Below, in pieces: positions 1 through 13,266 of a stretch of 19,782 nt of DNA. Positions within the stretch are counted from its first letter, which is position 1. Each line of letters starts with the position of its first letter. The DNA comes from a virus. Its lineage: Duplodnaviria; Heunggongvirae; Uroviricota; Caudoviricetes. Position numbers and translations under genes: made by a program. The notes beneath the pieces were generated by a model. It was not told where the DNA came from, made no database searches, and was given only the letters and a program-made list of their open reading frames with translations. The stretch spans positions 1 to 19,782 of the IMG/VR virus record IMGVR_UViG_2711768053_000018; one strand, given 5' to 3'.

Positions 1-57
1 CACCGCCGCCCCGCCGAGCGCCACAGCCGTGCCGGAACCGGATAAGGGTTCAGACAT
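1..57 (-). CDS. N-terminal fragment (19 codons in window) of an unknown protein continuing past the left edge
   Basis: ATG at 57..55 preceded by GGAG 8 nt upstream on the minus strand; reads MSEPLSGSGTAVALGGAAV. Too short to assign; its position downstream of the late region would fit a lysis gene, but that is speculation. Confidence 0.3.
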   Translation of the reverse strand, partial: MSEPLSGSGTAVALGGAAV

Positions 58-69
58 ACTTTTTTCTCC

Positions 70-98
70 TGTAAATAAAAAAGGGCCACCAGCGGCCC
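70..98 (-). terminator. Rho-independent terminator candidate
   Basis: GC stem GGGCC/GGCCC (83-87 / 94-98) with a 6-nt loop, followed on the minus strand by TTTTTTATTT. Confidence 0.45.
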
Positions 99-376
99 GT
101 AAAAAACACCCCGTCAAAAGCACCGGCATCCGCAGATGCCCTTTGCGTGGCGTTATTTGATGCGCACCAGATGTGGCGCAAAGAAATGAAATAAGACTTA
201 TCGGAAATTAAGGTTAATTTGAGGATTTAAACCACTTCTGAAGCTTAGTAGTATGAACATGTCCCCGGAAGGGGGCCAATACTTATTATTCTTCATGGAC
301 TTTGTCCCGCGGTCTTAATCCGACGACCGCGCTACTTTTCACCCTCTCGCAAATTGCTATCCAAAGGACGTTGTCC

Positions 377-409
377 CACGAGTATTCCTGGATGCTCGTG
401 TCTTTTTTT
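377..409 (+). terminator. Rho-independent terminator candidate (plus strand)
   Basis: Stem CACGAG/CTCGTG (377-382 / 395-400), extendable by two pairs, followed by TCTTTTTTT (401-409). Confidence 0.4.
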
Positions 410-423
410 GTCCTGAGAAAGGA

Positions 424-450
424 ATAAAAAAAACCGCCAGATATGGCGGT
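424..450 (-). terminator. Rho-independent terminator
   Basis: Perfect 7-bp stem ACCGCCA/TGGCGGT (433-439 / 444-450) with a 4-nt loop, followed on the minus strand by a run of eight T. Confidence 0.55.
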
Positions 451-814
451 TGGTCAATGCAAGGGATGAATTTTTTAATTGTTATTAAACCGAGGCGTCG
501 GGTGCCTCCCGAAGTATTCCGTGCTGTATGGATACTGTGGTTTCCCGCTAAACCGACTCTTTAAACCACCCTCGCACTGAGGAGCGCCTCTATGGTGCGA
601 TTTACAACACCAGAATGATGCATCACCGACCCTGCCAGGAAATACAAAATCTCCACCGATAATGCACCATTCTGCTGCCGTAAAAAAATCAGCACTGAGG
701 CTACACCCGGCCTCAAATCATAGCCAGAGAACAGAATGCTTTTTCAAAACAACCTGCTCCCACGTAATAAAAAATACGCCAGTGCCGCAATACAATAAGG
801 CTTGTTTCAAATGC

Positions 815-889
<75 letters not shown>

Positions 890-892
890 ATA

Positions 893-968
<76 letters not shown>

Positions 969-1204
969 ATTGGTTCTTCAGGGGAGCGATATCACCGAGC
1001 AAAGAAGAGTTCCCCCTCAGAACCGTTTTCGATGATACGATTTAATATTCCAATCGCAACAACACTTTGCGTCAAGTTATGTAAATTTATTTATATGTTT
1101 TTATTTTATGTGAATAATTCACTTTCACTTAAAATATACATGACAATATATAAACAAATTTATTTTGAAGGAGATTATTAAATGTCGTTTCTTATATAAC
1201 ACCG

Positions 1205-1235
1205 CAGAAACAACAAAACCCGCTCGATGGCGGGT
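1205..1235 (-). terminator. Rho-independent terminator candidate (tR'-like position downstream of the Q-like gene)
   Basis: Stem ACCCGC/GCGGGT (1218-1223 / 1230-1235) with a 6-nt loop, followed on the minus strand by TTTGTTGTTTCT. Sits about 100 nt downstream of the 1333..1869 gene in an AT-rich region. Confidence 0.4.
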
Positions 1236-1332
1236 TCTATTAAAGTTCAATTGCGCTTGATTCGCCTCGCGATACAGCTTTGCGAAGCGTACCAAAATTG
1301 AAGCAGTTTGTGGCTCATTTTGCAATGATTTT

Positions 1333-1869
1333 TTAAGCATAATCGAACGCTTCTCTCATAGGTGAATACAAAATGAACTCAGCAACACGCAACCACTGCT
1401 CAACACGACGTCGGCATGTAATCAACGCCCACTCTGGGTACTGTTCGTTTAATAACTCTGCCATCCTTCTCTTACTCATCCCTCGCCCCACATAACGCTG
1501 ACTCAGGACATTTAGTAGTCCTGGATGATCCGCCAGAACTTCACCTATAACACTATCAATTTTTAGTGCCTCTGCATCAGTGCAGTGAGTTAACCAGCTT
1601 TTTTGCTTTCCTTCGATCATCTCACGCAAAAATGCTTCCAACTCTGGTTTATCAATTCCCGCTTTTTTCAATCTGCGCAGGGCTTCATTGATGGCTGTTT
1701 TTGTCATTTTTTGGGATGCCAGCAACTGGTTAAACATATTCCCTGACCTGCCGCCGCCAATATACGACCAGCGCCCCCACATACGTAGTTTTCCCTGAAT
1801 CCAGACACTTTCCAGCGTGGTGAGACGAAGGTGTTCTCCGCTTTTTCCTGTATTCGTTGGGTAAATCAT
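1333..1869 (-). CDS. Putative late-gene regulator (Q-like antiterminator candidate)
   Basis: Start placed at the internal ATG 1869 (MIYPTNTGKSG...) because it overlaps the upstream stop as TCATGA-type coupling. The assignment is positional: last gene before an AT-rich promoter/terminator region and the tRNAs. A C-terminal segment (GMSKRRMAELL) is HTH-like. Family not recognised with certainty. Confidence 0.4.
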   Translation of the reverse strand: MIYPTNTGKSGEHLRLTTLESVWIQGKLRMWGRWSYIGGGRSGNMFNQLLASQKMTKTAINEALRRLKKAGIDKPELEAFLREMIEGKQKSWLTHCTDAEALKIDSVIGEVLADHPGLLNVLSQRYVGRGMSKRRMAELLNEQYPEWALITCRRRVEQWLRVAEFILYSPMREAFDYA

Positions 1870-2156
1870 AAATATCCCTCCTTTCTCCAGATTTCTTGTG
1901 TGCGAAAAACACCTTCTGCATGCATCAGGCGTAATTCTTCTTTGGTGTAATCGCTGGTTTTTACCCGCCCGTCGATTAAATCGTGGCACGAGCTACAGGC
2001 AATCGCTGCCTGCATATTGTGTGGCTTTATCGCTGTTCCGCACGTTCCCGCCAGTCGGTAATGCGCCAGCACAGACGTTTCCGGATCGTGATTGCAGTAG
2101 CCAGGAATTCTGACGGTGCACATCTGCCCCCGCGTCGCTTTACGTAAGTCCACCAT
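1866..2156 (-). CDS. YbcO-like Cys-rich protein (DUF1364-like, putative nuclease)
   Basis: 96 aa, MVDLRKATRGQMCTVRIPGYCNHDPETSVLAH...IACSSCHD; resembles DLP12 YbcO from memory. Start overlaps the upstream stop (TAATG). Confidence 0.65.
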   Translation of the reverse strand: MVDLRKATRGQMCTVRIPGYCNHDPETSVLAHYRLAGTCGTAIKPHNMQAAIACSSCHDLIDGRVKTSDYTKEELRLMHAEGVFRTQEIWRKEGYL

Positions 2157-2755
2157 TACGCAAACTCCAGCAGCTGCGCGGCCACATTTTCGACTTGTTC
2201 CGGAGAGGAAAATTTACGGAACAGAATCCAGTTCCACAGCACATTCAGTACAGATTTATAAACCTGCTGAAACACGGTTTCGTCCATATTCGCAAACGCG
2301 ATAGATTTCGCCCGACGCCCACGGCTACCATCAGGATAAAGATGCTCGGTGTAAAATCCGGCCTGAATGGTTACCCACTCGCGGAAAGCCTCAAACGATT
2401 TTAGCAATGCCGTATCCCGGGTTCTGCGTGTCGCAACTGTATTTAGATATTGCTCTGCGGCATCACTCAGGGCTGGTGTGTGTTCCCGACCAACTGATTC
2501 GCACAGGTAATCCACGAAACCAGACAGCAGTTCTCGTTCGCGAGGCGTGATCGCCCCACCGACCGGAGTCCAGTAATCGAATCCCAGTTGCAGGAGTTTG
2601 AAAAAACGCTTGTGGAATGCGTAGTTACGCACACGCTTAAAGTCTGCGTGTATCCACTCACCTATTTTGATTTGATGCAGAAAATCGCAACTCTCCGGCG
2701 TCGCCGGGAGAAGTAAACCAGAAGAGGTTTGTTTGACCAGTTGTATATGCGCCAT
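2156..2755 (-). CDS. nin-region phage protein (DUF1367-like)
   Basis: 199-aa ORF translationally coupled to the downstream YbcO-like gene; family assignment from memory only. Confidence 0.5.
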   Translation of the reverse strand: MAHIQLVKQTSSGLLLPATPESCDFLHQIKIGEWIHADFKRVRNYAFHKRFFKLLQLGFDYWTPVGGAITPRERELLSGFVDYLCESVGREHTPALSDAAEQYLNTVATRRTRDTALLKSFEAFREWVTIQAGFYTEHLYPDGSRGRRAKSIAFANMDETVFQQVYKSVLNVLWNWILFRKFSSPEQVENVAAQLLEFA

Positions 2756-3028
2756 TTCTCAATCTCTCGATGGCGCAGTGCAGCAGATGCCAGTTGTTCA
2801 GGCTGACGTATAAAGTATAAATAAACTGATTCCAGTGTAAAGCCCCCACATTGATGGAATAAAAACCAAACAACAAATTGCTGGGATAAAAACAACGCTT
2901 ATTATTAAAAGCGGTTAAACAAATTAAATTTTAATGTTATGCAAATCTGCCAGATCACCATAATATCTCATTTGAAAACCGCTGAAATAACAACCCTATC
3001 AGGATTAATCATATTAAGGTGAGTAAAT

Positions 3029-3115
3029 ATGGAAAACAACAAATCTGCACATTACGTTCCTTTTTTATCTGTAATACTTTTTGTTTTATGCTGTGCGTGG
3101 GCATTATTTTTATAA
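3029..3115 (+). CDS. 28-aa hydrophobic small protein candidate (MENNKSAHYVPFLSVILFVLCCAWALFL)
   Basis: ATG at 3029 preceded by AAGGTGAG with 5-nt spacing; polar N-terminus then about 19 hydrophobic residues; followed by a hairpin at 3137-3152. Below the 60-aa track cutoff. Confidence 0.3.
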   Translation: MENNKSAHYVPFLSVILFVLCCAWALFL

Positions 3116-3135
3116 AAATATTCACAGATAAAATA

Positions 3136-3153
3136 TACCCGCCGAAGCGGGTT
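3136..3153. terminator. Bidirectional terminator candidate between the convergent small ORF and the ATPase/TOPRIM cassette
   Basis: Stem ACCCGC/GCGGGT with loop CGAA (3137-3152), T-rich on the plus side and A/T-rich on the minus side. A second hairpin GCCTGAT/ATCAGGC lies at 3175-3197. Confidence 0.35.
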
Positions 3154-3218
3154 TAGTGCGGGTGCGTTGAGGATGCCTGATAAAGCTTACATCAGGCCGA
3201 TTTCACTGATTTCAGACC

Positions 3219-3752
3219 TTATTCCACCAAGCGGAAATGCCTAGCAAAATTTGACTTCATATCCGCAACAGGCTTTAACGCATCGTGTAGCCCCCGGGAA
3301 AACCACAGATGCTCTCGAATCCCCAGCTTAATTAATTTACCCAGCGAATCATTACATGCTATAAAATCCCTTTTAAAATCATTAATTCCGGATGTTTTCC
3401 TTCCGCAAAAACAATAAATCAACTGAGGAATGGATTTATTGCAGCACCAGCTCAATTCTTCTTCAAAATTACTTGTTTGCTGAAACAAATATATCCGATG
3501 CCCTCTGGAACGTAAAAATTTCACGTTTTCTATAAATCTTGCCGATTGCTCAACCTGATCTGAATCAAACACAACAAATATATCACTACCCTTTGGTATT
3601 GCCATCGCATACCTATGTATCCGATCCTGCCAGAAATTCTTCTTAACAACATCCTTCACAGCAATAATCTTATCTCTCTTCATTTTTTTGAACAGAGATA
3701 ATTCTGTTTCACCTTCAACGAAAACGATTGTAACTGTTGCTCTTGCTGCCAT
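3219..3752 (-). CDS. Small TOPRIM-like (OLD-type) nuclease-domain protein, partner of the upstream ATPase
   Basis: 177 aa. N-terminal IVFVEGETE (conserved Glu of TOPRIM strand 1) and VVFDSD (DxD motif). Start ATG lies 1 nt after the ATPase stop (TAAaATG). AT-rich by eye. Confidence 0.6.
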   Translation of the reverse strand: MAARATVTIVFVEGETELSLFKKMKRDKIIAVKDVVKKNFWQDRIHRYAMAIPKGSDIFVVFDSDQVEQSARFIENVKFLRSRGHRIYLFQQTSNFEEELSWCCNKSIPQLIYCFCGRKTSGINDFKRDFIACNDSLGKLIKLGIREHLWFSRGLHDALKPVADMKSNFARHFRLVE

Positions 3753-3753
3753 T

Positions 3754-4950
3754 TTAAAGCAACTCCGAAACTAAAGACATATCAGGCATAACGCCAAAGA
3801 TATCCCGTGCAACTGCACTTCGTATACTCCTGTCGTTTTTTTTCAGGAGTGAGCCTGCTTCAATGAACTCAGTGCAATCATTATCCTTTTTGAGAAAAAT
3901 GAACGAATGAACAGGCAAGTCAAGCTCAAAAATATCCATATTATGTGTGGTGTAGAAAAACTGAGTGTTTTCCTTAAGCCTAGAAATAATCAGCGTAACG
4001 ATTATCCGCTCCAGTTCTGAATGAGAGTAGGCTAACTTCTCATCAAGGTAATAGGTCATTGACGGAATGTTGGAGCACACACCAAGTTCTTCACAATCAG
4101 AGATTATCGCACTGACAAAATGAGCTATTGTGACAGCATCGAAGGTGCCCCGTGACATACGATCTGAGTTCGTTATGTCGCCTTTACTTGTTACGATTGA
4201 ATAATCCTTGTTTTTAAACCTTATCAAATAAACCTTGGTGGGATTTTTGCCTTCCGACTCAGGTTCAGTCATCTCAACGACGCCAACAATACTTGAATCA
4301 AAAGTGCGAATTATTCTTTCAAGAATATCTTTATTCATTCTTGAAATTTCAGCTGTACTTTCTTGAATCCCTGACAACTGGTAATACCACCCCCCCGAAA
4401 AAATAACGCTCTTGAAGGGTTCGAGAGTAACAGTATTACCATCAGAATAACTCTCATGAAAATAATATTCAGCAGAGGTTGGAGCCCCCGCAGAAAATAG
4501 TTTGTTTAGCTTTTCTGTTGTTTTAAAACAGGAGTCATTTATGTTTATTTTCACATAACCATATTTCACTTCTTTAACAAAAAGTGCACCTGTTTCATTT
4601 GCAGCAAAGCGAACATACAACCTGTGATGCAAGAAGTTCTCTGTCGCAAAATCCACTTCAAAGGAGGCATCCTGATCCCTGTGGTTAAGTCGCAGACTGG
4701 AGCGCAGCTCTTTGGTTCTGATAAAAACCTGAATCCCACACAATATTCTGCCCAGAGAGGTTTTCCCGGAAGCGTTCCCTCCAGTAATGATACAGACTTT
4801 CTTATAATAAAATTTAGGTCTGCCCGCCAGATGCTCACCCTCAAGCGGTATATTCACCTGCTTCTTGGGGTATGAAAGATTCAGTTCTGCGTTGCAGAAT
4901 GCATACAGATTTACAAGTTTTATGCGCGTGAAAATCATTTTTTCTTCCAT
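3754..4950 (-). CDS. ABC-type (AAA_21-like) ATPase of a candidate defence module
   Basis: 398 aa. Walker A ITGGNASGKTSLGRIL, Walker B-like YYLDE, H-loop FFYTTHNMD. An alternative start at 4938 (MIFTRIK) has a better-spaced GGAAG. Upstream minus-strand promoter candidate TTGTTG-17-GATAAT (plus 5000-4995 / 4977-4972). AT-rich relative to neighbours by eye. Confidence 0.8.
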   Translation of the reverse strand: MEEKMIFTRIKLVNLYAFCNAELNLSYPKKQVNIPLEGEHLAGRPKFYYKKVCIITGGNASGKTSLGRILCGIQVFIRTKELRSSLRLNHRDQDASFEVDFATENFLHHRLYVRFAANETGALFVKEVKYGYVKININDSCFKTTEKLNKLFSAGAPTSAEYYFHESYSDGNTVTLEPFKSVIFSGGWYYQLSGIQESTAEISRMNKDILERIIRTFDSSIVGVVEMTEPESEGKNPTKVYLIRFKNKDYSIVTSKGDITNSDRMSRGTFDAVTIAHFVSAIISDCEELGVCSNIPSMTYYLDEKLAYSHSELERIIVTLIISRLKENTQFFYTTHNMDIFELDLPVHSFIFLKKDNDCTEFIEAGSLLKKNDRSIRSAVARDIFGVMPDMSLVSELL

Positions 4951-7175: not shown

Positions 7176-7664
7176 CTACTCACTGGATGCCTCCTTCATA
7201 AAAAGAATCCAGTGGGTCTTGTCACCCTTTCCTGTTCGTTGACCGATAACAGGCTTTCTGTCGGTCAGTGCCAATATCTGGCGAACAGGTATTTGCGTTT
7301 CATTCCATTTAAAAATCAGAACGCCATGTGGCCACAACACACGAAAGGCTTCTTTAAATCCCTGCCGCAAATCATCACGCCAGGTATCTTTATTCAGCCG
7401 TCCATATTTCTTTCCCATCCAGGCATTATCACCAATACGCTCAAGATGCGGAGGGTCGAATACAACAACCGGAAACGATGCGTCTGCAAATGGTAATGCT
7501 CGAAAATCTGCTATCAGGTCAGGACAGATAATCAGGCGTCGTCCATCACACAATGTGTGCTCTTCTTTTCTGATATCGCTAAATATCGCCCGTTCGTCAT
7601 TCTTATCAAACCAGAACATGCGACTGCCACAGCACATGTCGAGAATGGTAGCCGACGCACTCAC
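7176..7664 (-). CDS. SAM-dependent methyltransferase, probably DNA N6-adenine (phage orphan MTase)
   Basis: 162 aa. Motif I-like LDMCCGSRMFW and motif IV DPPH (VVVFDPPH), in the order typical of amino-methyltransferases. No adjacent restriction-enzyme gene. Confidence 0.7.
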   Translation of the reverse strand: MSASATILDMCCGSRMFWFDKNDERAIFSDIRKEEHTLCDGRRLIICPDLIADFRALPFADASFPVVVFDPPHLERIGDNAWMGKKYGRLNKDTWRDDLRQGFKEAFRVLWPHGVLIFKWNETQIPVRQILALTDRKPVIGQRTGKGDKTHWILFMKEASSE

Positions 7665-8098: not shown

Positions 8099-8860
8099 TC
8101 ACTTTTCCGACACAATACGACTGGAGGAATCGAAAATCTGTCGAACAATATCCCGGTGCTTGTTCAGCTCCCGCAGCGCGGCGCAGACTCGCTCCCACTT
8201 CTGGACATGATTTTTCGCCCGACGCAGTTCGCGGTTTGCCATATGCAGCGATGGTAAAACCAGGTCATCTGCTCGCGTTTCAGTGAACGATGGCAGCGGC
8301 TGCACAATGTCCGCCACAGTTTCTGTTTTAATTTCTTCCTGTATTGCAGCCTCCTGTACTGGTAAAACAACACATGCAGGCTGAGGAAAGGCTTTACCAT
8401 CATTTTCCGTTACCGATGCAGCTTTCGGCTCTGCTGGTAAATTATCGCCCGGTATGCAGTAACGAAATTTACCGTTCTGGTTTACGCGAATCAGGCGTCC
8501 TTTGCAGATTGCCATTGCCAGCGTTGAAGCCACTTTGCGGGATGTTGTACCAAACAGCGTAGCCAGTTCATCCGCCGTTTGTGGTCCACGCTGCTCAATC
8601 GTCGCAGTTAAATCGCACTCTGAGATTTTCGCTACTGTTGCCGTGGTGGTTTCTTCCGGCAGTTCTGCCTGCATTGGCTGTTCCTGCTGAACGTTGTTAT
8701 CAGCCACACGCCAGGTGTACGCGCTTTTATCAACGAAACCAGCTTTTTTCAGTTCCCATAGTTCGTTCAGCACTTCTTCACGACTGATATCAAGTCGCGC
8801 AGCAAGTTCTATGGATGTGGCTTTTCCCATTGCTTTCAGTGCGTCAAAAACAGTCTCCAT
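8099..8860 (-). CDS. Phage protein with two winged-helix-like DNA-binding segments
   Basis: 253 aa. Two similar segments ([30 protein letters not shown] and [30 protein letters not shown]). GGGAGG RBS at 8-nt spacing. Confidence 0.6.
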
Positions 8861-8893
8861 TAAAATTTCCTCCCGGTAAAATTACTTATCAAC

Positions 8894-9559
8894 TCAAACA
8901 AAACCAGCCGCTTTCCGGCGTTCATATTCCTGTTTCAGCAACTCAATTGGTGTTGGCCCCGACGGGCGTTCTGGTGCTGCCAGTTGCCGCCGTACGGGCG
9001 GAACGCTGAAGCCGTCACCAACATGCTTTGCCCATTTCGCCAGTTGCCGTTCTGCAAGTCGTTTTAACTCCCCTTCGGTCATCTGGCGCTCAATCCCCTT
9101 TGAACGCATCTCGAGGCAAATGTGATACAGCACAGGCTGAGACCACGGGTATTTATCGCTTCCGTCGTATCGCCAGGACTCGTTGCGCCAGCGTCGGTAC
9201 TCCTCCATCACAGCATCCACCGTCAGACCGAATGGATTGGCCCCGCTTTCCGAAATCAGCGCCACAAACTCAGCCAGGTCCGGAGGCCATGTTTCACCCG
9301 TCCGGCAGCGGTCCATGCACTGGCGGCAGACCTGTCGGATTTGCTGCTCAGTCATCGCACCAATCTGTGCAATCCAGAGCTTCGAAGGTGCGGCCCCGTT
9401 CTTCTGGGTCCAGCGGTTCGAATAAACCTCCCCCATGAGTTCCCACAACTTCCAGGCCGTTTCCGTCGCTGATAAATCCGTTTTCACGTTCCCACTGCTC
9501 ACGTGCTGCCCGAATTTCCTGAACTGCCCGTGATGCGGTGCCACCTGGTGCTGCTGCAT
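8894..9559 (-). CDS. Replication protein P-like (helicase-loader family)
   Basis: Colinear similarity to lambda P from memory ([46 protein letters not shown]). Start uncertain: the track start 9559 overlaps the O-like ORF by 212 nt; internal ATGs are at 9436 and 9358. Confidence 0.65.
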
Positions 9560-10472
9560 GGTTCACCCCCTTGCTGACTGGTTTAACCTGCGCCCTGACG
9601 TGATTTACGTGACGGGCGAATTTCTGCTCCCACTGAACCTGCGTGAAAACTTTCCCCTCCGCTGCCCAGTAGTCCCGGAAGGCGGCAAGTTCAGCTGGTG
9701 TAAATTCCGGCTCCGGCAGAGCCACTCCCCACAGAGCTGCCCGCCGTCGAAAATCCAGCGACGGATGCCAGCCATCAGTCATCGGAAATTTCCCGATGGG
9801 TTCGTTCAGGCCTTCCAGGTAATCAGGTTCCGCTGTCTGCAACGGCACGCCATTTGCCTCACTGGCCGGAGCACTCTCGCGCACGCGCGCGTTATGTGTG
9901 GGGTTTATATATCTGTTATCTGTTATCTGGATACCGCATGACAAAGCGTTAGCCTTATCCTTAGGCTTATCCTCAGGCAAAGGGATTGCCTTATCGAATG
10001 CCATCCCCAAAGCCTCAGAAACCCCATAGGACGCGGCTCTCAGCGATTCCCTAGCCTCCCATTTGAGAGGACAATCAGGAATTAAAGCGAATGCCTTTGC
10101 CCAGGATTTAATGACATTTATCGAGTTTGGCGGATTGTGTTTCGCAGCATTCGGGAGCCAAAAAACTCTGGCTTTGATATCTGCTTTCACCATGCCAAGA
10201 TTCATGGCTTCGCCTAAGGCTAAGTCAAAGGCTTCGATATCCCACCCCAACTCTTCAGCCATTGCTGCCCGCCCGGCTTTAAACAACCCAGGAATAATCC
10301 CGGTAAATGGACTGGTCAGCAGATAAATAAACAAACTCTGTCCACTTGGAGGCAGAGGAGATAACGCCCTAAATTTGGGATCATCCCATATCGTTATTTT
10401 TACCTTGCGATAAGGCTCATTGTTTGCCTTAGTTTTTGGCATGGGATTTGGCATATTTTTAGCCTTAACCAT
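9348..10472 (-). CDS. Replication initiator (O-like) with a DnaT-like C-terminal region
   Basis: Track ORF 9348..10526 begins with a TTG; first ATG is at 10472 (MVKAKNMP...) with GAGG at 5-nt spacing. Contains an internal iteron/AT-rich region, as in lambda O. C-terminal region resembles the DnaT-type domain from memory. Confidence 0.6.
9906..9996. repeat. Putative replication origin: iteron-like repeats plus AT-rich tract inside the O-like gene
   Basis: Three copies of G(C/G)CTTATC(C/G) at 9952-9960, 9964-9972 and 9988-9996 (12- and 24-bp spacing), then an AT-rich tract with tandem ATCTGTT repeats at 9906-9933. In the direction of O translation, iterons precede the AT-rich tract, as in lambda ori. 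Confidence 0.45.
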
Positions 10473-10551
10473 AATTGCCTCATCTGGTGTCGAACCTTCC
10501 TCCGGATATAATCTGTGATTCCCCAATCAACAGAACCAAAGGAGGTTCGAC

Positions 10552-10803
10552 ATGTCTTTTACATTTGATAAGTCTGCTCCATTCCCACAAAAATTTTGGG
10601 TGGACAGTATTACTGGAACCGAGTCAAAAATTTTTAGCACCTCAGGAATGCTCAATCGCGGAGGAGTAAAAATACTTGCCCAGGAATTCCACACACAGGA
10701 GCTAAATTACGGGGCTTATCACAAACTAGAGTTGATAATGGATGCAACCCAAATTGATGAACTGATCGTTGCCCTACAAAAGCTAAAAGAAAAGATGTCA
10801 TAA
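10552..10803 (+). CDS. Hypothetical 83-aa protein, antisense to the early-right operon
   Basis: Strong AAGGAGG RBS at 7-nt spacing. AT-rich by eye. A perfect TATAAT sits at 10507-10512 upstream. Stop codon directly abuts the stop of the convergent gene at 10804. Confidence 0.5.
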   Translation: MSFTFDKSAPFPQKFWVDSITGTESKIFSTSGMLNRGGVKILAQEFHTQELNYGAYHKLELIMDATQIDELIVALQKLKEKMS

Positions 10804-11100
10804 TCACCCCCTAAAAATTACGTGGCGCAGCGGTTGAGCTTTGCTGTAGTCGATCTCATCGCCATACTCAATATCAAGAGCTTGTCCCTGCGCCAGTTCC
10901 ATCCACCGAATGTGTTCTGCGGCTTTTTCTTTATCTTTGATATTGATGAACAACAGCGTTGACGAGGGATACCCGTTAACAAGATGGCGATGCAGAGAGA
11001 GTCGTATGGCATACCAGGCAACATTTCGGGCTATACGCTGAAGCAATGTTTCGCCTTCCAGTGTTTTAAGTCGGTATTTTTTCAGTTCATATTTTTCCAT
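10804..11100 (-). CDS. Hypothetical 98-aa protein immediately downstream of ydaT
   Basis: ATG at 11100 (MEKYELKK...) with AAGGTGA 7 nt upstream; the track ORF starts at a GTG at 11106. Confidence 0.5.
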   Translation of the reverse strand: MEKYELKKYRLKTLEGETLLQRIARNVAWYAIRLSLHRHLVNGYPSSTLLFINIKDKEKAAEHIRWMELAQGQALDIEYGDEIDYSKAQPLRHVIFRG

Positions 11101-11112
11101 CACCACATCACC

Positions 11113-11535
11113 TTAATGAACAACAACAGAATCGCCGGACGAACCACCGCCGCTGAAATGCGCTTTCCGGTAAACGGCCTGGACTGCATCATCATGCGCA
11201 TCAATTGCCGTACTCAACGCTTCCTGCGCCGCCAGTAATGCACGGCGTTCCAGGGTATCGAAGATGCAGAGTCGGTGACGCAGCTCGCGCGGAAGGATTG
11301 CCAGAATTGCTGGGATCAGCTTCTGAATTTTTTCTCTTTGCGTTTTCGTTTCACCTTTCAACCAACGGTGATAGATATTCTGCTGATTGTTCCAGTCCTT
11401 GCCTGGAACCAGGGGCAATTCGCCGCCCCCCTGGCGCAGATATTCTTCAGTAATTGCATTGGCTACCCATGCCTGCCCTTTTTCGGCTGCCAGGGCAAAC
11501 AACACTGATTCGATGTGCTCATGCTTGATTTTCAT
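11113..11535 (-). CDS. ydaT: YdaT-like protein (Rac early-right operon)
   Basis: 140 aa, same length as K-12 YdaT from memory, and positioned directly after ydaS. Confidence 0.75.
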   Translation of the reverse strand: MKIKHEHIESVLFALAAEKGQAWVANAITEEYLRQGGGELPLVPGKDWNNQQNIYHRWLKGETKTQREKIQKLIPAILAILPRELRHRLCIFDTLERRALLAAQEALSTAIDAHDDAVQAVYRKAHFSGGGSSGDSVVVH

Positions 11536-11557
11536 GAATCATTTGCCTCTTGATGTT

Positions 11558-11854
11558 TCAGGTATGATCAAATGAGGATTTGTTACTGTCATTTAGTTGC
11601 TTCACTGACATATTCTGCGAACAACATGCCGAACGTCGTAAATATGACCAGTCAATATCAGGACGAAGCTCTTCGCACAGAACCTCACCTCTTGTTGCTC
11701 GTTCAATTGCTGGACATCTCTCGGCAGGCAATTGACGTACCCCTTTGATCCATTGATTTACGCTTGGAGGTGATACACCTAAAAGCCTAGCCATTGCTGA
11801 TTGCCCACCGACAACAGCACAAGCTTGCTTGAATGAATAGTTCTCTTTTTTCAT
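11558..11854 (-). CDS. ydaS: YdaS-like Cro-type HTH protein
   Basis: 98 aa with HTH segment QACAVVGGQSAMARLLGVSPPSVNQW; divergent from racR across the operator region; GGAG RBS. Confidence 0.8.
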   Translation of the reverse strand: MKKENYSFKQACAVVGGQSAMARLLGVSPPSVNQWIKGVRQLPAERCPAIERATRGEVLCEELRPDIDWSYLRRSACCSQNMSVKQLNDSNKSSFDHT

Positions 11855-11880
11855 CGAATGAACTCCAAAAACACACAGAA

Positions 11881-11955
11881 ATATTAGGCGACGCCTAATA
11901 TAAATGTCAATAGGCTATGCCTAATGCGATAAAGATAGGGATTGCCTAATGCAAT
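11881..11955. promoter_or_regulatory. OR-like operator/promoter region between racR and ydaS
   Basis: Perfect 21-bp palindrome ATATTAGGCGACGCCTAATAT (11881-11901) and further TTAGGC/GCCTAA half-sites. Minus-strand promoter candidate TTGACA (11910-11905), 18-nt spacer, TAATAT (11886-11881) aimed at ydaS. Confidence 0.55.
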
Positions 11956-11977
11956 GAGCATAGGAGAATATTAAGCA

Positions 11978-12454
11978 ATGCTTAGTGGTAAAGACTTAGG
12001 CCGAGCGATAGAGCAGGCCATTAACAAAAAAATCGCATCGGGATCCGTCAAATCAAAGGCGGAGGTCGCACGCCACTTCAAAGTCCAACCACCATCAATT
12101 TATGACTGGATTAAGAAAGGCTCCATAAGTAAAGATAAACTTCCAGAATTATGGCGTTTCTTTTCTGATGTTGTTGGTCCAGAGCATTGGGGGCTTAACG
12201 AATACCCCATACCAACCCCCACCAATTCAGATACAAAAAGTGAACTTTTAGATATAAACAACCTTTATCAAGCAGCCTCTGATGAAATTAGAGCGATTGT
12301 AGCTTTCCTGTTATCTGGAAATGCTACAGAACCAGATTGGGTTGACCACGATGTTCGCGCCTACATAGCAGCGATGGAAATGAAAGTGGGTAAGTATCTG
12401 AAAGCTCTAGAATCTGAACGGAAAAGCCAGAACATCACAAAAACTGGAACTTAA
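11978..12454 (+). CDS. racR: Prophage repressor RacR-like
   Basis: 158 aa (same length as K-12 RacR from memory). N-terminal HTH-like segment, AGGAGA RBS, flanked by operator clusters on both sides. Confidence 0.8.
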   Translation: MLSGKDLGRAIEQAINKKIASGSVKSKAEVARHFKVQPPSIYDWIKKGSISKDKLPELWRFFSDVVGPEHWGLNEYPIPTPTNSDTKSELLDINNLYQAASDEIRAIVAFLLSGNATEPDWVDHDVRAYIAAMEMKVGKYLKALESERKSQNITKTGT

Positions 12455-12529
12455 ACTTATATGGTCTGACGGAAAACTCCTGGATTCCGTTATTTAACCC
12501 CCCCATCATTTTCTCCTGTCGCCATCACC

Positions 12530-12595
12530 TATTAGGTTACGCCCAAAACATTAGGCATAGCCTATTGACAATCAATTAGGCATTACCTATAGTTC
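12530..12595 (+). promoter_or_regulatory. OL/pL-like operator and near-consensus sigma70 promoter driving the + strand operon toward int
   Basis: TTGACA (12565-12570), 17-nt spacer, TATAGT (12588-12593). TTAGGC-type half-sites at 12532, 12551 and 12576. Contains a 22-mer identical to the OR promoter module. Confidence 0.6.
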
Positions 12596-12762
12596 CAGCA
12601 TACCACCCACCCCGCCACACAGAACGCCGGGCAATACTTCGAGTTACCAGGCAGTGGTAAGGGGTTAAGTAGCCAGCCCGAGGCGTATGAACATGACGGC
12701 GGGATTCAAATTTTGCAGTGCAGCAGTTAGTTCCGCCACCCGGCGTTAAGGGGAGAGATAAG

Positions 12763-12907: not shown

Positions 12908-13060
12908 ATGCAAAAAATCGACCTCGGCAATAACGAATCCCTGGTGTGCGGCGTGTTCCCCAACCAGGATGGAACGTTCACCGCCATGACTTATACCAAA
13001 AGCAAAACATTTAAAACAGAAACAGGCGCACGTCGCTGGCTTGCCAGAAATACTTGCTAA
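12908..13060 (+). CDS. Small protein, YdaF-like (50 aa)
   Basis: ATG 12908 with GAGGTG 7 nt upstream; reads MQKIDLGNNESLVCGVFPNQ...ARNTC. Below the track cutoff. Confidence 0.4.
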   Translation: MQKIDLGNNESLVCGVFPNQDGTFTAMTYTKSKTFKTETGARRWLARNTC

Positions 13061-13266
13061 TCCATTATTTGGATTAATTCAATATTCTCGCTGTAGGGGT
13101 ATAGCAGAAACCACCAAAGCCCGGAGGTGGTGAAATAAAACCGGGCACAACACGAAGGCGCATTTCTGATATCCATAAAGAGTCGGTCTTGTCTGTTAAA
13201 TTTAAATGGTAGGAGTGCGCCTCCGGTTGTGAATAACAACACTGCTGTGTGTAGTCTTGGCGGCAT
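13057..13266 (-). CDS. Possible truncated SieB-like remnant
   Basis: 69-aa hydrophobic ORF at the position and strand where Rac sieB lies, with a 4-nt convergent overlap with the ydaF-like gene. The frame hits a stop at 13336-13338 upstream, so it is much shorter than the full length recalled for SieB. Confidence 0.25.
   Translation of the reverse strand: MPPRLHTAVLLFTTGGALLPFKFNRQDRLFMDIRNAPSCCARFYFTTSGLWWFLLYPYSENIELIQIMD

Follow-up and report, generated by a model that had tools for sequence, protein, structure and literature searches.

[quoted passage not shown] In K-12, the repressor RacR silences the strong promoter PydaST, and deletion of racR is possible only in a ΔydaST background (PMC5700373, PMC11014345). 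Work published after 2017 describes RacR, YdaS and YdaT as forming an immunity switch of the CI/Cro/CII type in a lambdoid prophage (PMC11014345, PMC11879457). YdaS is the Cro analogue and YdaT the CII analogue, and both are DNA-binding regulators (PMC5917428, PMC8630535, PMC11879457) for which, together with RacR, no toxin-antitoxin behaviour has been reported (PMC5917428, PMC11879457). YdaT alone is toxic, through host RcsA and in a strain-dependent manner, strain ER2566 being insensitive (PMC11014345). Its analogy with CII is incomplete because YdaT had no effect on excision in K-12 (PMC11014345). RacR octamerises through a C-terminal domain that is unrelated to that of CI (PMC11014345), and both its operator consensus and an operator over the racR start codon have been published (PMC9638921). 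Depletion of RacR raises xisR/intR roughly 100-fold (PMC11014345). The paaR2/ydaS/ydaT region of the CP-933P type from E. coli O157:H7 is built in the same way from a repressor, a Cro analogue and a YdaT-type CII analogue (PMC8630535; structure 8bt1, PMC9986795).

Here, we compared these systems with a stretch of 19,782 nucleotides from a virus record of the Caudoviricetes (IMGVR_UViG_2711768053_000018), referred to as the window. The minus strand of positions 11113-11854 holds ydaT and ydaS, which face racR across a 123-bp region:

11113-11535, minus strand: ydaT, CII analogue of 140 aa (138/140 identical to E. coli K-12 MG1655 Rac; PF06254, phrog_163)
11558-11854, minus strand: ydaS, Cro analogue of 98 aa (98/98 identical to K-12; PF15943, P22_Cro, phrog_35)
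11978-12454, plus strand: racR, CI-like prophage repressor of 158 aa (158/158 identical to K-12; NCBIfam equivalog NF049929)
11525-11542, minus strand: YdaT-box ATGATTCATGAAAATCAA, overlapping the ydaT start codon (pattern match)
11881-11910, minus strand: PydaST, the PR analogue, TTGACA-18-TAATAT (promoter scan)
11732-11764, plus strand: PracR4, a PRE-like reverse promoter inside ydaS, hexamers TTGACG and TACGCT (sequence identical to K-12)

The limits of the ydaS and ydaT ORFs given in a preliminary description of this DNA were confirmed, and the two genes are co-oriented and divergent from racR. YdaS scored 107.7 bits against YdaS_toxin PF15943 (cut-off 30; 2.6e-31) and also matched P22_Cro (3.4e-09), HTH_3 and phrog_35, annotated as 'transcriptional repressor'. 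YdaT scored 43.7 bits against YdaT_toxin PF06254 (cut-off 21) and matched phrog_163, 'CII-like transcriptional activator' (2.4e-37), as well as the solved structures 8bt1 (CP-933P YdaT) and 3c4r. Its two changes relative to K-12, at residues 134 and 138, fall in the C-terminal tail; H56, R57, W58, L107 and A110 are kept, the DNA-binding residues H56 and R57 among them. The box over the ydaT start codon is identical to the site footprinted in K-12 (PMC11879457). CP-933P-type prophages share the YdaT motif TTGATT-N6-AATCAA, and cross-binding has been shown (PMC11879457); their YdaT, however, is only about 30% identical and reportedly non-toxic (PMC11014345), and their repressor is PaaR2, followed by a ParE toxin-antitoxin pair. 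RacR scored 244.6 bits against NF049929 (cut-off 200), which identifies it as a RacR orthologue. Pfam returned no Peptidase_S24 match in RacR, that is, no LexA-like autocleavage domain for SOS induction, and a weak HTH_17 match alone.

The similarity to K-12 extends to the non-coding DNA. The 123-bp ydaS-racR region aligned with K-12 without gaps, the genes are spaced alike (ydaS and ydaT 22 nt apart, ydaS and racR 123 nt), and PydaST, the RacR operators, the YdaT-box and the PracR4 hexamers are all kept in the alignment of this region and ydaS/ydaT. PydaST is identical to the promoter mapped by experiment in K-12, and the function of PracR4 is known from that strain (PMC11879457). Also shared with K-12 Rac (b1356-b1358) are the leftward operon with ydaG, ydaF, kilR (71/73), recET, xisR and intR and the ttcA integration side. 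The earlier statement that the ydaS-ydaT operon is intact under an OR-like promoter is thus borne out by near-identical proteins and by conservation of PydaST and its operators. Judged by this identity, the region very probably governs immunity (lysis-lysogeny) in a Rac-like lambdoid prophage at ttcA and is essentially K-12 DNA at this place.

RacR-type operators were located with the pattern (T/A)TAGGC-N3-GCCTA(T/A). Chance alone would give 0.59 such sites in the window; seven were found, and they fall into two clusters that flank racR:

11884-11985, no strand assigned: OR-like cluster of four RacR inverted repeats (pattern search; conserved relative to K-12)
11884-11898: OR-like operator 1, a perfect TTAGGC-N3-GCCTAA between the -35 and -10 elements of PydaST
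11910-11924 and 11935-11949: OR-like operators 2 and 3
11971-11985: OR-like operator 4, across the racR ATG
12532-12593, plus strand: OL/PL-like region with operators at 12532-12546, 12551-12565 and 12576-12590 and a promoter TTGACA-17-TATAGT (promoter scan, pattern search)

The first cluster overlaps both PydaST and the start of racR. The promoter in the second matches the consensus at 11 of 12 positions and points towards ydaG-ydaF-kilR-recET-xis-int; two of its three operators recur at the corresponding site in K-12. This arrangement is consistent with the rise of xisR/intR upon depletion of RacR (PMC11014345). Each of the two clusters thus lies over a promoter directed away from racR, as in a lambda-type switch. 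Lambda cI-cro-cII shares with this locus the divergent repressor and cro genes, operators over PR/PRM, a second cluster at the leftward promoter (PMC11014345), a CII-type activator of a reverse promoter in or near cro and replication genes downstream. In contrast to lambda, no homology between RacR and CI is detectable beyond the HTH, RacR lacks the S24 autocleavage domain, and YdaT does not share the CII fold but is a POU-like tetramer (PMC9986795). In addition, the place taken by protein-coding reverse genes in this phage is occupied in lambda by the short oop antisense RNA. The likeness to a lambda-type switch is one of apparent working and not of homology.

If the locus works as in K-12, RacR would be a CI-type repressor occupying operators in two clusters, the OR-like one covering the very strong PydaST and the OL-like one the PL-like promoter for kilR-recET-xis-int. 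With RacR present, the rightward operon of ydaS, ydaT and a downstream gene, orf98, and on towards the replication genes, would be silent. A drop in RacR would lead to synthesis of YdaS, which would oppose RacR and favour excision, and of YdaT, which on the box over its own start codon would activate the PRE-like reverse promoter inside ydaS and feed back on racR. At high level, YdaT would act as a toxin via the rcsA promoter of the host. Experiments demonstrating these steps come from K-12 only, and the steps are carried over to the present locus on the basis of sequence identity. The host rcsA site needed for YdaT toxicity lies outside the window.

The preliminary description had taken ydaS/ydaT as a module that is toxic when derepressed and may lock racR in. 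The dependence itself stands for K-12, where racR was removable only together with ydaS-ydaT and not in a ΔkilR background (PMC5700373, PMC11014345), but the toxin module does not, since only YdaT is toxic and the two proteins are regulators of the Cro and CII type (PMC11014345, PMC11879457, PMC5917428, PMC8630535). In its strongest form this reading would make ydaS-ydaT, perhaps with orf98, a dedicated toxin operon and racR the indispensable part of a toxin-antitoxin-like addiction module. The Pfam names of both families still carry the word 'toxin', and gene distribution could be read in the same sense. The repressor gene always accompanied ydaS in 154 genomes (PMC5700373). In our own counts over 5426 complete E. 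coli genomes, 555 had a ydaS-ydaT pair of the K-12 type (coverage at least 80%) and 555 had the pair together with racR, so that apparently no genome has the pair but lacks racR, which supports an essential racR indirectly; racR itself (identity at least 95%) was found in 582 and in about 27 genomes is not accompanied by the complete pair. Linkage alone, however, gives co-occurrence of adjacent genes. YdaS and YdaT are HTH regulators that bind DNA and have relatives of the Cro-like and CII-like kinds, YdaS by itself was not toxic in later work (PMC11014345), YdaT activates transcription of racR (PMC11879457), and the control exerted by RacR extends to the PL-like promoter and xis/int. The same ydaT allele and box occur with unrelated repressors and Cro-like genes, and orf98 follows cro, without ydaT, in other phages. 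An earlier study, as far as its citation in PMC5917428 conveys, saw no toxin-antitoxin activity. Nor does the layout resemble a type II toxin-antitoxin system: racR is divergent, RacR acts at operators, and YdaS and YdaT are HTH regulators. We therefore regard an addiction module as improbable and favour the CI/Cro/CII-type immunity switch. In such a switch RacR would be hard to lose, like any prophage repressor, and the lock would be conditional, because cells depleted of RacR also induce xisR/intR and are rescued when the prophage excises (PMC11014345).

Downstream of the switch the locus departs from K-12. Homology ends directly after the ydaT stop codon (window position 11112), where a different module begins:

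10804-11100, minus strand: orf98, small protein co-oriented with ydaT (dN/dS; RefSeq hypothetical protein)
10552-10803, plus strand: orf83, convergent partner whose stop codon abuts that of orf98 (dN/dS; strong Shine-Dalgarno AAGGAGGT)
10485-10554, plus strand: leader of orf83 of about 70 nt, promoter-like and hairpin-capable, including the Shine-Dalgarno (conserved across loci)
8894-10262, minus strand: replication module in place of K-12 ydaU/ydaV (Pfam, phrog_1408, RefSeq annotation of a near-identical locus)
9348-10262, minus strand: DnaT-domain initiator (Pfam DnaT, 2e-17)
8894-9355, minus strand: lambda-P-like protein (Pfam Phage_lambda_P, 2.5e-16)

In K-12, ydaU-ydaV-ydaW lie 3' of ydaT, whereas here orf98, the convergent orf83 with its leader, the DnaT-domain initiator and the lambda-P-like protein take this place. 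The PHROG match of the replication module is phrog_1408, 'replication initiation protein'. Iteron-like repeats are present at 9942-9995. The overall order is lambdoid, with int-xis-recET-kilR on one side of racR and ydaS-ydaT, the replication genes, a nin region and a Q-like gene on the other. Unlike K-12 Rac, which is heavily deleted, the window retains the nin region, the Q-like gene and the lysis-gene border; sieB, in turn, is missing. Since the window stops at the lysis-gene border, completeness of the prophage is inferred from its closest relative, SC418, a prophage of full size that includes lysis genes and terminase. With such a relative, loss of racR may be lethal here for the ordinary reasons that apply to a prophage repressor.

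The preliminary description had also seen the operon as extended by an extra 98-aa gene. The gene is real: it begins 12 nt past the ydaT stop with a Shine-Dalgarno AAGGTGAT, its dN/dS is 0.09-0.14 against Citrobacter and metagenome copies (about 0.1), and an indel of two codons is in frame. The notion of an extension fares less well, as ydaU follows ydaT at an equal distance of 12 nt in K-12. On sequence grounds, we place orf98 outside the K-12 module and do not count it as a toxin-operon gene alongside ydaS and ydaT. Together with orf83 it makes up a rare convergent cassette, inserted downstream of the CII-like gene and ahead of the replication genes. This cassette was found in 19 of 5426 complete E. 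coli genomes. It is a mosaic element that occurs alongside immunity regions of several types and more than one kind of replication module. Only nine representatives of the orf98 family were found among 1.84 billion proteins, and Pfam, NCBIfam, PHROG and PDB held no relatives. PADLOC gave HEC-05 as sole match of orf98 (14.6 bits, E 0.0027), which was dismissed as chance, and none for orf83. A simple scan detected no terminator between ydaT and orf98 or past orf83.

The position of orf98 raised the idea of a third switch regulator, a CIII-like protein co-transcribed with the CII analogue that would stabilise YdaT, for example by inhibition of FtsH. The invariant core of the family, E-T-L-[LIV]-Q-R-I-A-R-N-[VI]-A-W, is reminiscent of the lambda CIII functional helix, E-S-L-L-E-R-I-T-R-K-L, and exactly these segments were paired by hhalign. 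The gene lies 12 nt past ydaT in the window and in loci L003-L006, L012 and L016, with a gap of 36-37 nt in L007-L010 and L015, and no cIII-family gene was found among the ten largest leftward-operon ORFs scanned. However, when the actual lambda sequence and a CIII profile of 20 members were used, the hhalign probability was 3-5% (E 0.007-0.016, 13-16 columns), and all nine family members failed to match Pfam Lambda_CIII (PF02061) at E up to 10. Membership of orf98 in the lambda CIII family was thus rejected. Both are small proteins with the 11-residue core, linked to a CII-type regulator by gene neighbourhood, but this similarity to the FtsH-inhibiting lysogeny factor is not significant; orf98 is twice as long, its flanks differ, and it belongs to the PR operon and not, like CIII, to the PL operon. 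Moreover, K-12 Rac and most YdaT prophages lack orf98, and strict linkage to YdaT was rejected, since the gene lies directly after cro in L014 and between cro and a lambda-type cII in L017. Its strict co-occurrence with a small orf83-like partner suggests a role specific to the pair. A CIII-like role is hence highly improbable and survives as no more than a lead.

For orf83, dN/dS was 0.18-0.34, and in L015-L017 its homologues (47-51% identity) converge on those of orf98; searches of Pfam, NCBIfam, PHROGs, PADLOC and PDB returned no match for orf83. The leader in front of it hardly varies among loci at which protein identity is no more than 13-50%. In this leader, a -35-like TTGGTG and a -10-like TAnnCT are separated by 18 nt, and a hairpin-capable segment could base-pair with the leader's own Shine-Dalgarno. 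The predicted folding energy is -27.3 kcal/mol (z = -3.95), and RNAalifold gave 11 pairs for the possible hairpin, with zero compensatory changes. A search of Rfam over 10200-12700 returned nothing at E up to 1 except a chance snoRNA match elsewhere, hence no match for the leader. The leader was found in 635 of 5426 E. coli genomes (about 12% of the complete genomes, O157:H7 prophages included) and also precedes unrelated genes at the same slot, its cargo comprising orf83-like proteins, the ECs1072 family, phrog_5286 and phrog_4753. A sigma-70 promoter at 10448-10475 (TTGGCA-16-CATAAT) was rejected as the general orf83 promoter because it is not conserved in ydaU-context or Citrobacter loci. 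In CP-933P-type prophages, the same leader and a reverse cargo gene lie between ydaT and the replication genes, but the cargo is an ECs1072-family protein and orf98 is lacking.

One reading of these data, possible but tentative, is that orf98 and orf83 together constitute an accessory module complete in itself, a moron with an exclusion, defence or toxin-antidote-like function, in which orf83 would be expressed from its own leader in the lysogen and orf98 only when PR fires. Their transcripts would necessarily overlap in antisense because the stop codons abut. The pair is kept as a unit from 33-50% protein identity up, with abutting or overlapping stops except for a 108-nt gap in L014; it moves independently of immunity type and replication module, and both genes are under purifying selection. 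The orf83 leader is common to other cargo genes at this position, the orf98 family was seen only with small cargo, and expression of an ECs1072-family cargo gene was detected in uninduced O157 cultures (PMC2241611). On the other hand, neither protein has a family, structure or defence-database match, the AlphaFold2 models of orf98 and orf83 from shallow alignments are unreliable (pLDDT 43 and 50), and the hairpin shows no compensatory changes. As in other phage morons, orf83 and the alternative cargo genes run opposite to the surrounding operon behind their own promoter-like leader and a strong Shine-Dalgarno, and the cargo varies among otherwise syntenic prophages. Unlike in morons, a single leader serves at least four unrelated cargo families at a fixed slot, and orf83 has a co-evolving partner on the PR strand.

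A broader and frankly speculative proposal is an accessory-gene slot of lambdoid prophages in which a portable leader of about 70 nt would drive varied cargo against PR, giving oop-like antisense into ydaT/orf98, with orf98 as the PR-side partner (antidote or regulator) specific to orf83-like cargo. An accessory function, possibly exclusion or defence, would thereby be coupled to the RacR switch. Our literature search found no description of one leader being reused for unrelated cargo at one slot, with a partner gene on the PR strand in the orf83 case. The RacR-YdaS-YdaT core is already known, and the leader downstream of it is the only novel lead. For the core, the value of the comparison lies in correct annotation and in the warning that the Pfam/RefSeq label 'toxin' for YdaS and YdaT is outdated. 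If the cassette is expressed in the lysogen and antisense to the CII-like gene, it would constitute a new layer of interplay between prophage and host and a source of uncharacterised phage functions.

The ydaS-ydaT operon that the preliminary description had placed at 11113-11854 was confirmed in both coordinates and gene identities, as its reading frames and the divergent racR are almost completely identical to those of the Rac prophage of E. coli K-12:

11558-11854, minus strand: ydaS, 98 aa, 98/98 residues identical to K-12 MG1655 Rac
11113-11535, minus strand: ydaT, 140 aa, 138/140 residues identical to K-12 MG1655 Rac
11978-12454, plus strand (divergent from ydaS-ydaT): racR, 158 aa, 158/158 residues identical to K-12 Rac

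The spacing between ydaS and ydaT is 22 nt, racR and ydaS lie 123 bp apart, and YdaT differs from its K-12 counterpart only at residues 134 and 138, both in the tail. The Pfam models YdaS_toxin (107.7 bits) and YdaT_toxin (43.7 bits) were matched above threshold and the NCBIfam RacR equivalog scored 244.6 bits against a cut-off of 200. Given these scores and the K-12 identities, chance is of no concern for the gene identities. YdaS also matches P22_Cro and HTH_3, and YdaT matches both PHROG 163, labelled 'CII-like transcriptional activator', and a solved YdaT structure, 8bt1.

The surrounding regulatory DNA aligned with K-12 without gaps, and the following elements are kept relative to K-12:

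11881-11910, minus strand: PydaST, the ydaS-ydaT promoter, TTGACA-18-TAATAT, found by promoter scan
11884-11898, 11910-11924 and 11935-11949: RacR inverted repeats that fit the published consensus
11971-11985: RacR operator spanning the racR ATG
11525-11542: YdaT-box (the YdaT binding site), ATGATTCATGAAAATCAA, across the ydaT start, found by pattern match (PMC11879457)
11732-11764, plus strand: hexamers of PracR4, a PRE-like reverse promoter inside ydaS, -35 TTGACG and -10 TACGCT (PMC11879457)

PydaST has been mapped experimentally in K-12 (PMC9638921, PMC11879457). By sequence, the PracR4 hexamers are separated by 21 nt in the window and K-12 alike, a spacer unusually long for a sigma-70 promoter, which may be the reason for silence without YdaT. 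A search with the RacR operator consensus, (T/A)TAGGC-N3-GCCTA(T/A) (PMC9638921), returned seven sites in the window against 0.59 expected, and a second cluster was found beyond racR:

12532-12590 (with its promoter, 12532-12593): three RacR-type operators on the far (3') side of racR

This cluster overlaps a promoter with 11/12 consensus positions, TTGACA-17-TATAGT, aimed at ydaG-ydaF-kilR-recET-xisR-intR, and two of its three operators have counterparts at the matching position in K-12 (9630-9669 of the Rac locus). Cluster and promoter make up an OL/PL-like arrangement, which is consistent with the roughly 100-fold rise of xisR/intR upon RacR depletion in K-12 (PMC11014345). No mention of it was found in the RacR literature examined.

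The preliminary description took racR to be essential because derepressed ydaS/ydaT is toxic, as reported in 2017 (PMC5700373, PMC5700377), and suggested that the repressor of this operon, held silent by RacR, may be similarly locked in. A K-12 ΔracR strain has indeed been obtained only in a ΔydaST background (PMC5700373, PMC11014345). However, the toxin framing is outdated. RacR is an octameric CI analogue that binds four operators, and YdaS, an analogue of Cro, favours excision when expressed (PMC11014345). YdaT is analogous to CII; it binds the YdaT-box and switches on PracR4 and hence racR, a positive feedback (PMC11879457). Jobling described ydaS/ydaT as this prophage's equivalents of Cro and CII (PMC5917428). 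Viability is lowered by YdaT alone, not by YdaS, via the host rcsA promoter and in a strain-dependent manner, while RacR depletion at the same time triggers excision, and cells are rescued once the non-replicating Rac circle is lost (PMC11014345). Hence the lock in K-12 is real yet conditional, a by-product of the lysis-lysogeny switch and not the purpose of a toxin operon. The racR-ydaS-ydaT module is known and thoroughly studied; it had been recognized correctly, with a mechanistic reading that is partly outdated.

For comparison, 5426 complete E. coli genomes were searched. The K-12-type ydaS-ydaT pair (at least 80% coverage) was present in 555/5426 and the pair together with racR in one contiguous piece likewise in 555/5426, so that no genome with the pair and without racR was apparent. 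At a minimum of 95% identity racR occurred in 582/5426 genomes, and the excess includes one genome with ydaS cut to its first 67 nt as well as genomes with a different ydaT allele. This co-occurrence, which extends an earlier observation on 154 genomes (PMC5700373), is in line with the lock but equally expected from tight linkage by itself. The segment comprising ydaT and the YdaT-box (11113-11541) was found in 1833 genomes, alongside several unrelated Cro-like and repressor genes, as compared with only 555 for K-12-type ydaS. The mosaic junction 5' of ydaT coincides exactly with the outer limit of the YdaT-box, so that gene and binding site travel together among prophages whose Cro-like and repressor genes are unrelated. 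This distribution argues for YdaT as a general module of the switch rather than a toxin specific to RacR.

A Rac-like lambdoid prophage is represented in the window by its early half. The window ends with intR beside ttcA and continues leftward through replication genes, DUF1627/DUF977, a nin-like region, a Q-like DUF1133 gene and two tRNAs to the border of the lysis cassette. The tRNA genes, tRNA-Gly(UCC) and tRNA-Thr(UGU), lie at 815-968 (minus strand) between the DUF1133 gene and that border. Strain SC418, the closest relative among complete genomes (99.8% identity over 2-3180), runs on into genes for holins, endolysin, terminase and structural proteins, so that the prophage studied here may, in the region beyond the window, have decayed far less than K-12 Rac. 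Relative to SC418, the nin region carries a two-gene insertion (3219-4950, minus strand) encoding a 398-aa AAA-type ATPase (PADLOC AbiLi, 8.2e-23) and a 177-aa protein (weak AbiLii match, 8e-4), probably an abortive-infection system of the AbiL type that the prophage acquired as a moron. The early-right operon contains a 162-aa ORF (7176-7664, minus strand) that matches the PADLOC MTase_II model (Type II/orphan DNA methyltransferase; 2.1e-73). Whereas K-12 Rac has the superinfection exclusion gene sieB between ydaF and kilR, the window lacks it, about 550 bp (8626-9178 of the Rac locus) being replaced by about 40 bp (13043-13086).

Homology to K-12 ends right after the ydaT stop codon, at 11112, and a convergent gene pair with a leader follows:

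10804-11100, minus strand: orf98, a 98-aa gene starting 12 nt after ydaT, behind AAGGTGAT
10552-10803, plus strand: orf83, its stop codon abutting that of orf98, with a strong AAGGAGGT Shine-Dalgarno
10485-10554, plus strand: leader, a conserved element of about 70 nt directly 5' of the orf83 ATG, also in L005, L007-L009, L012, L014-L036 and L038 (comparison loci from other genomes and prophages)

In K-12, ydaU begins at the identical 12-nt distance from ydaT; the operon is therefore not extended by orf98, as had been proposed, but its PR-type continuation has been replaced. On the operon side the pair is followed by a 289-bp gap, a DnaT-domain initiator gene and a lambda-P-like gene. Three iteron-like direct repeats within the initiator gene (9942-9995; CTTATC-containing 18-mers, spacing 12 and 24 nt) are reminiscent of the lambda ori within gene O.

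Compared with copies from Citrobacter freundii and metagenomes (about 80% amino acid identity), orf98 has a dN/dS of 0.09-0.14 and an in-frame two-codon indel as the only length difference; it is a real gene. It is rare: 5.8 billion proteins contained six clusters of it and a set of 1.84 billion contained nine representatives. It gave no family, defence-system or PDB match in Pfam, NCBIfam, PHROG, PADLOC and PDB searches. For orf83 dN/dS is 0.18-0.34. Purifying selection acts on both genes, and neither could be assigned to a family. The cassette of both occurs in 19/5426 complete E. coli genomes, always directly 3' of a ydaT-family gene, accompanying at least three immunity types and either replication module. 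Other lambdoid prophages carry homologues of orf98 with 33-50% identity at the corresponding early-right position, either after YdaT (L012, L015, L016), directly after cro (L014) or between cro and a lambda-type cII (L017). In L015-L017 a convergent orf83 homologue (47-51% identity) has a stop abutting or overlapping that of the orf98 homologue. Convergent pairs with stop codons that abut or overlap lie at:

window 10552-11100
L007 5001-5543
L015 3001-3513
L016 1722-2276
L017 1243-1725

This conserved arrangement points to a co-evolving pair whose transcripts would necessarily overlap in antisense. In some prophages the YdaT or cro gene is followed by two orf98-family paralogues in tandem (L012 4001-4321 and 4312-4662), and L014 has two hmmsearch matches to the family. 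AlphaFold models of both proteins are unreliable. Between the invariant core of orf98 and the functional helix of lambda CIII there is a resemblance, which is not significant (hhalign probability 3-5%), and orf98 has no match to CIII in Pfam; the likeness is kept solely as a low-probability lead.

The leader is nearly invariant across the compared loci, also where identity between the flanking proteins falls to 13-50%, and was detected in 19 viral contigs (pattern scan) and 635/5426 complete E. coli genomes (blastn). Where flanks were recovered, leader and cargo (the gene that it heads) run against PR (PydaST in the window), between Cro/CII-like and replication genes. The cargo belongs to at least four unrelated families, none with known function: orf83-like small proteins, the ECs1072 family, phrog_5286 and phrog_4753. 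In the O157:H7 EDL933 prophage with paaR2-paaA2-parE2/ydaS/ydaT, the leader precedes an 'ECs1072 family' gene. Across the loci, the orf98 family is found solely where the cargo is small and orf83-like. The leader carries the most informative positions of a sigma-70 promoter (consensus TTGGTG, 18 nt, TAnnCT) and is predicted to fold as a long hairpin that pairs the Shine-Dalgarno and AUG (-27.3 kcal/mol, z = -3.95). It has neither an Rfam match nor compensatory base changes, and hence no covariation support, and may act either as DNA, as a promoter, or as RNA, as a translational hairpin. No description of it was found in the literature searched. While the immunity module itself is already known, the orf98-orf83 cassette, together with the portable leader, offers a modest but real lead.
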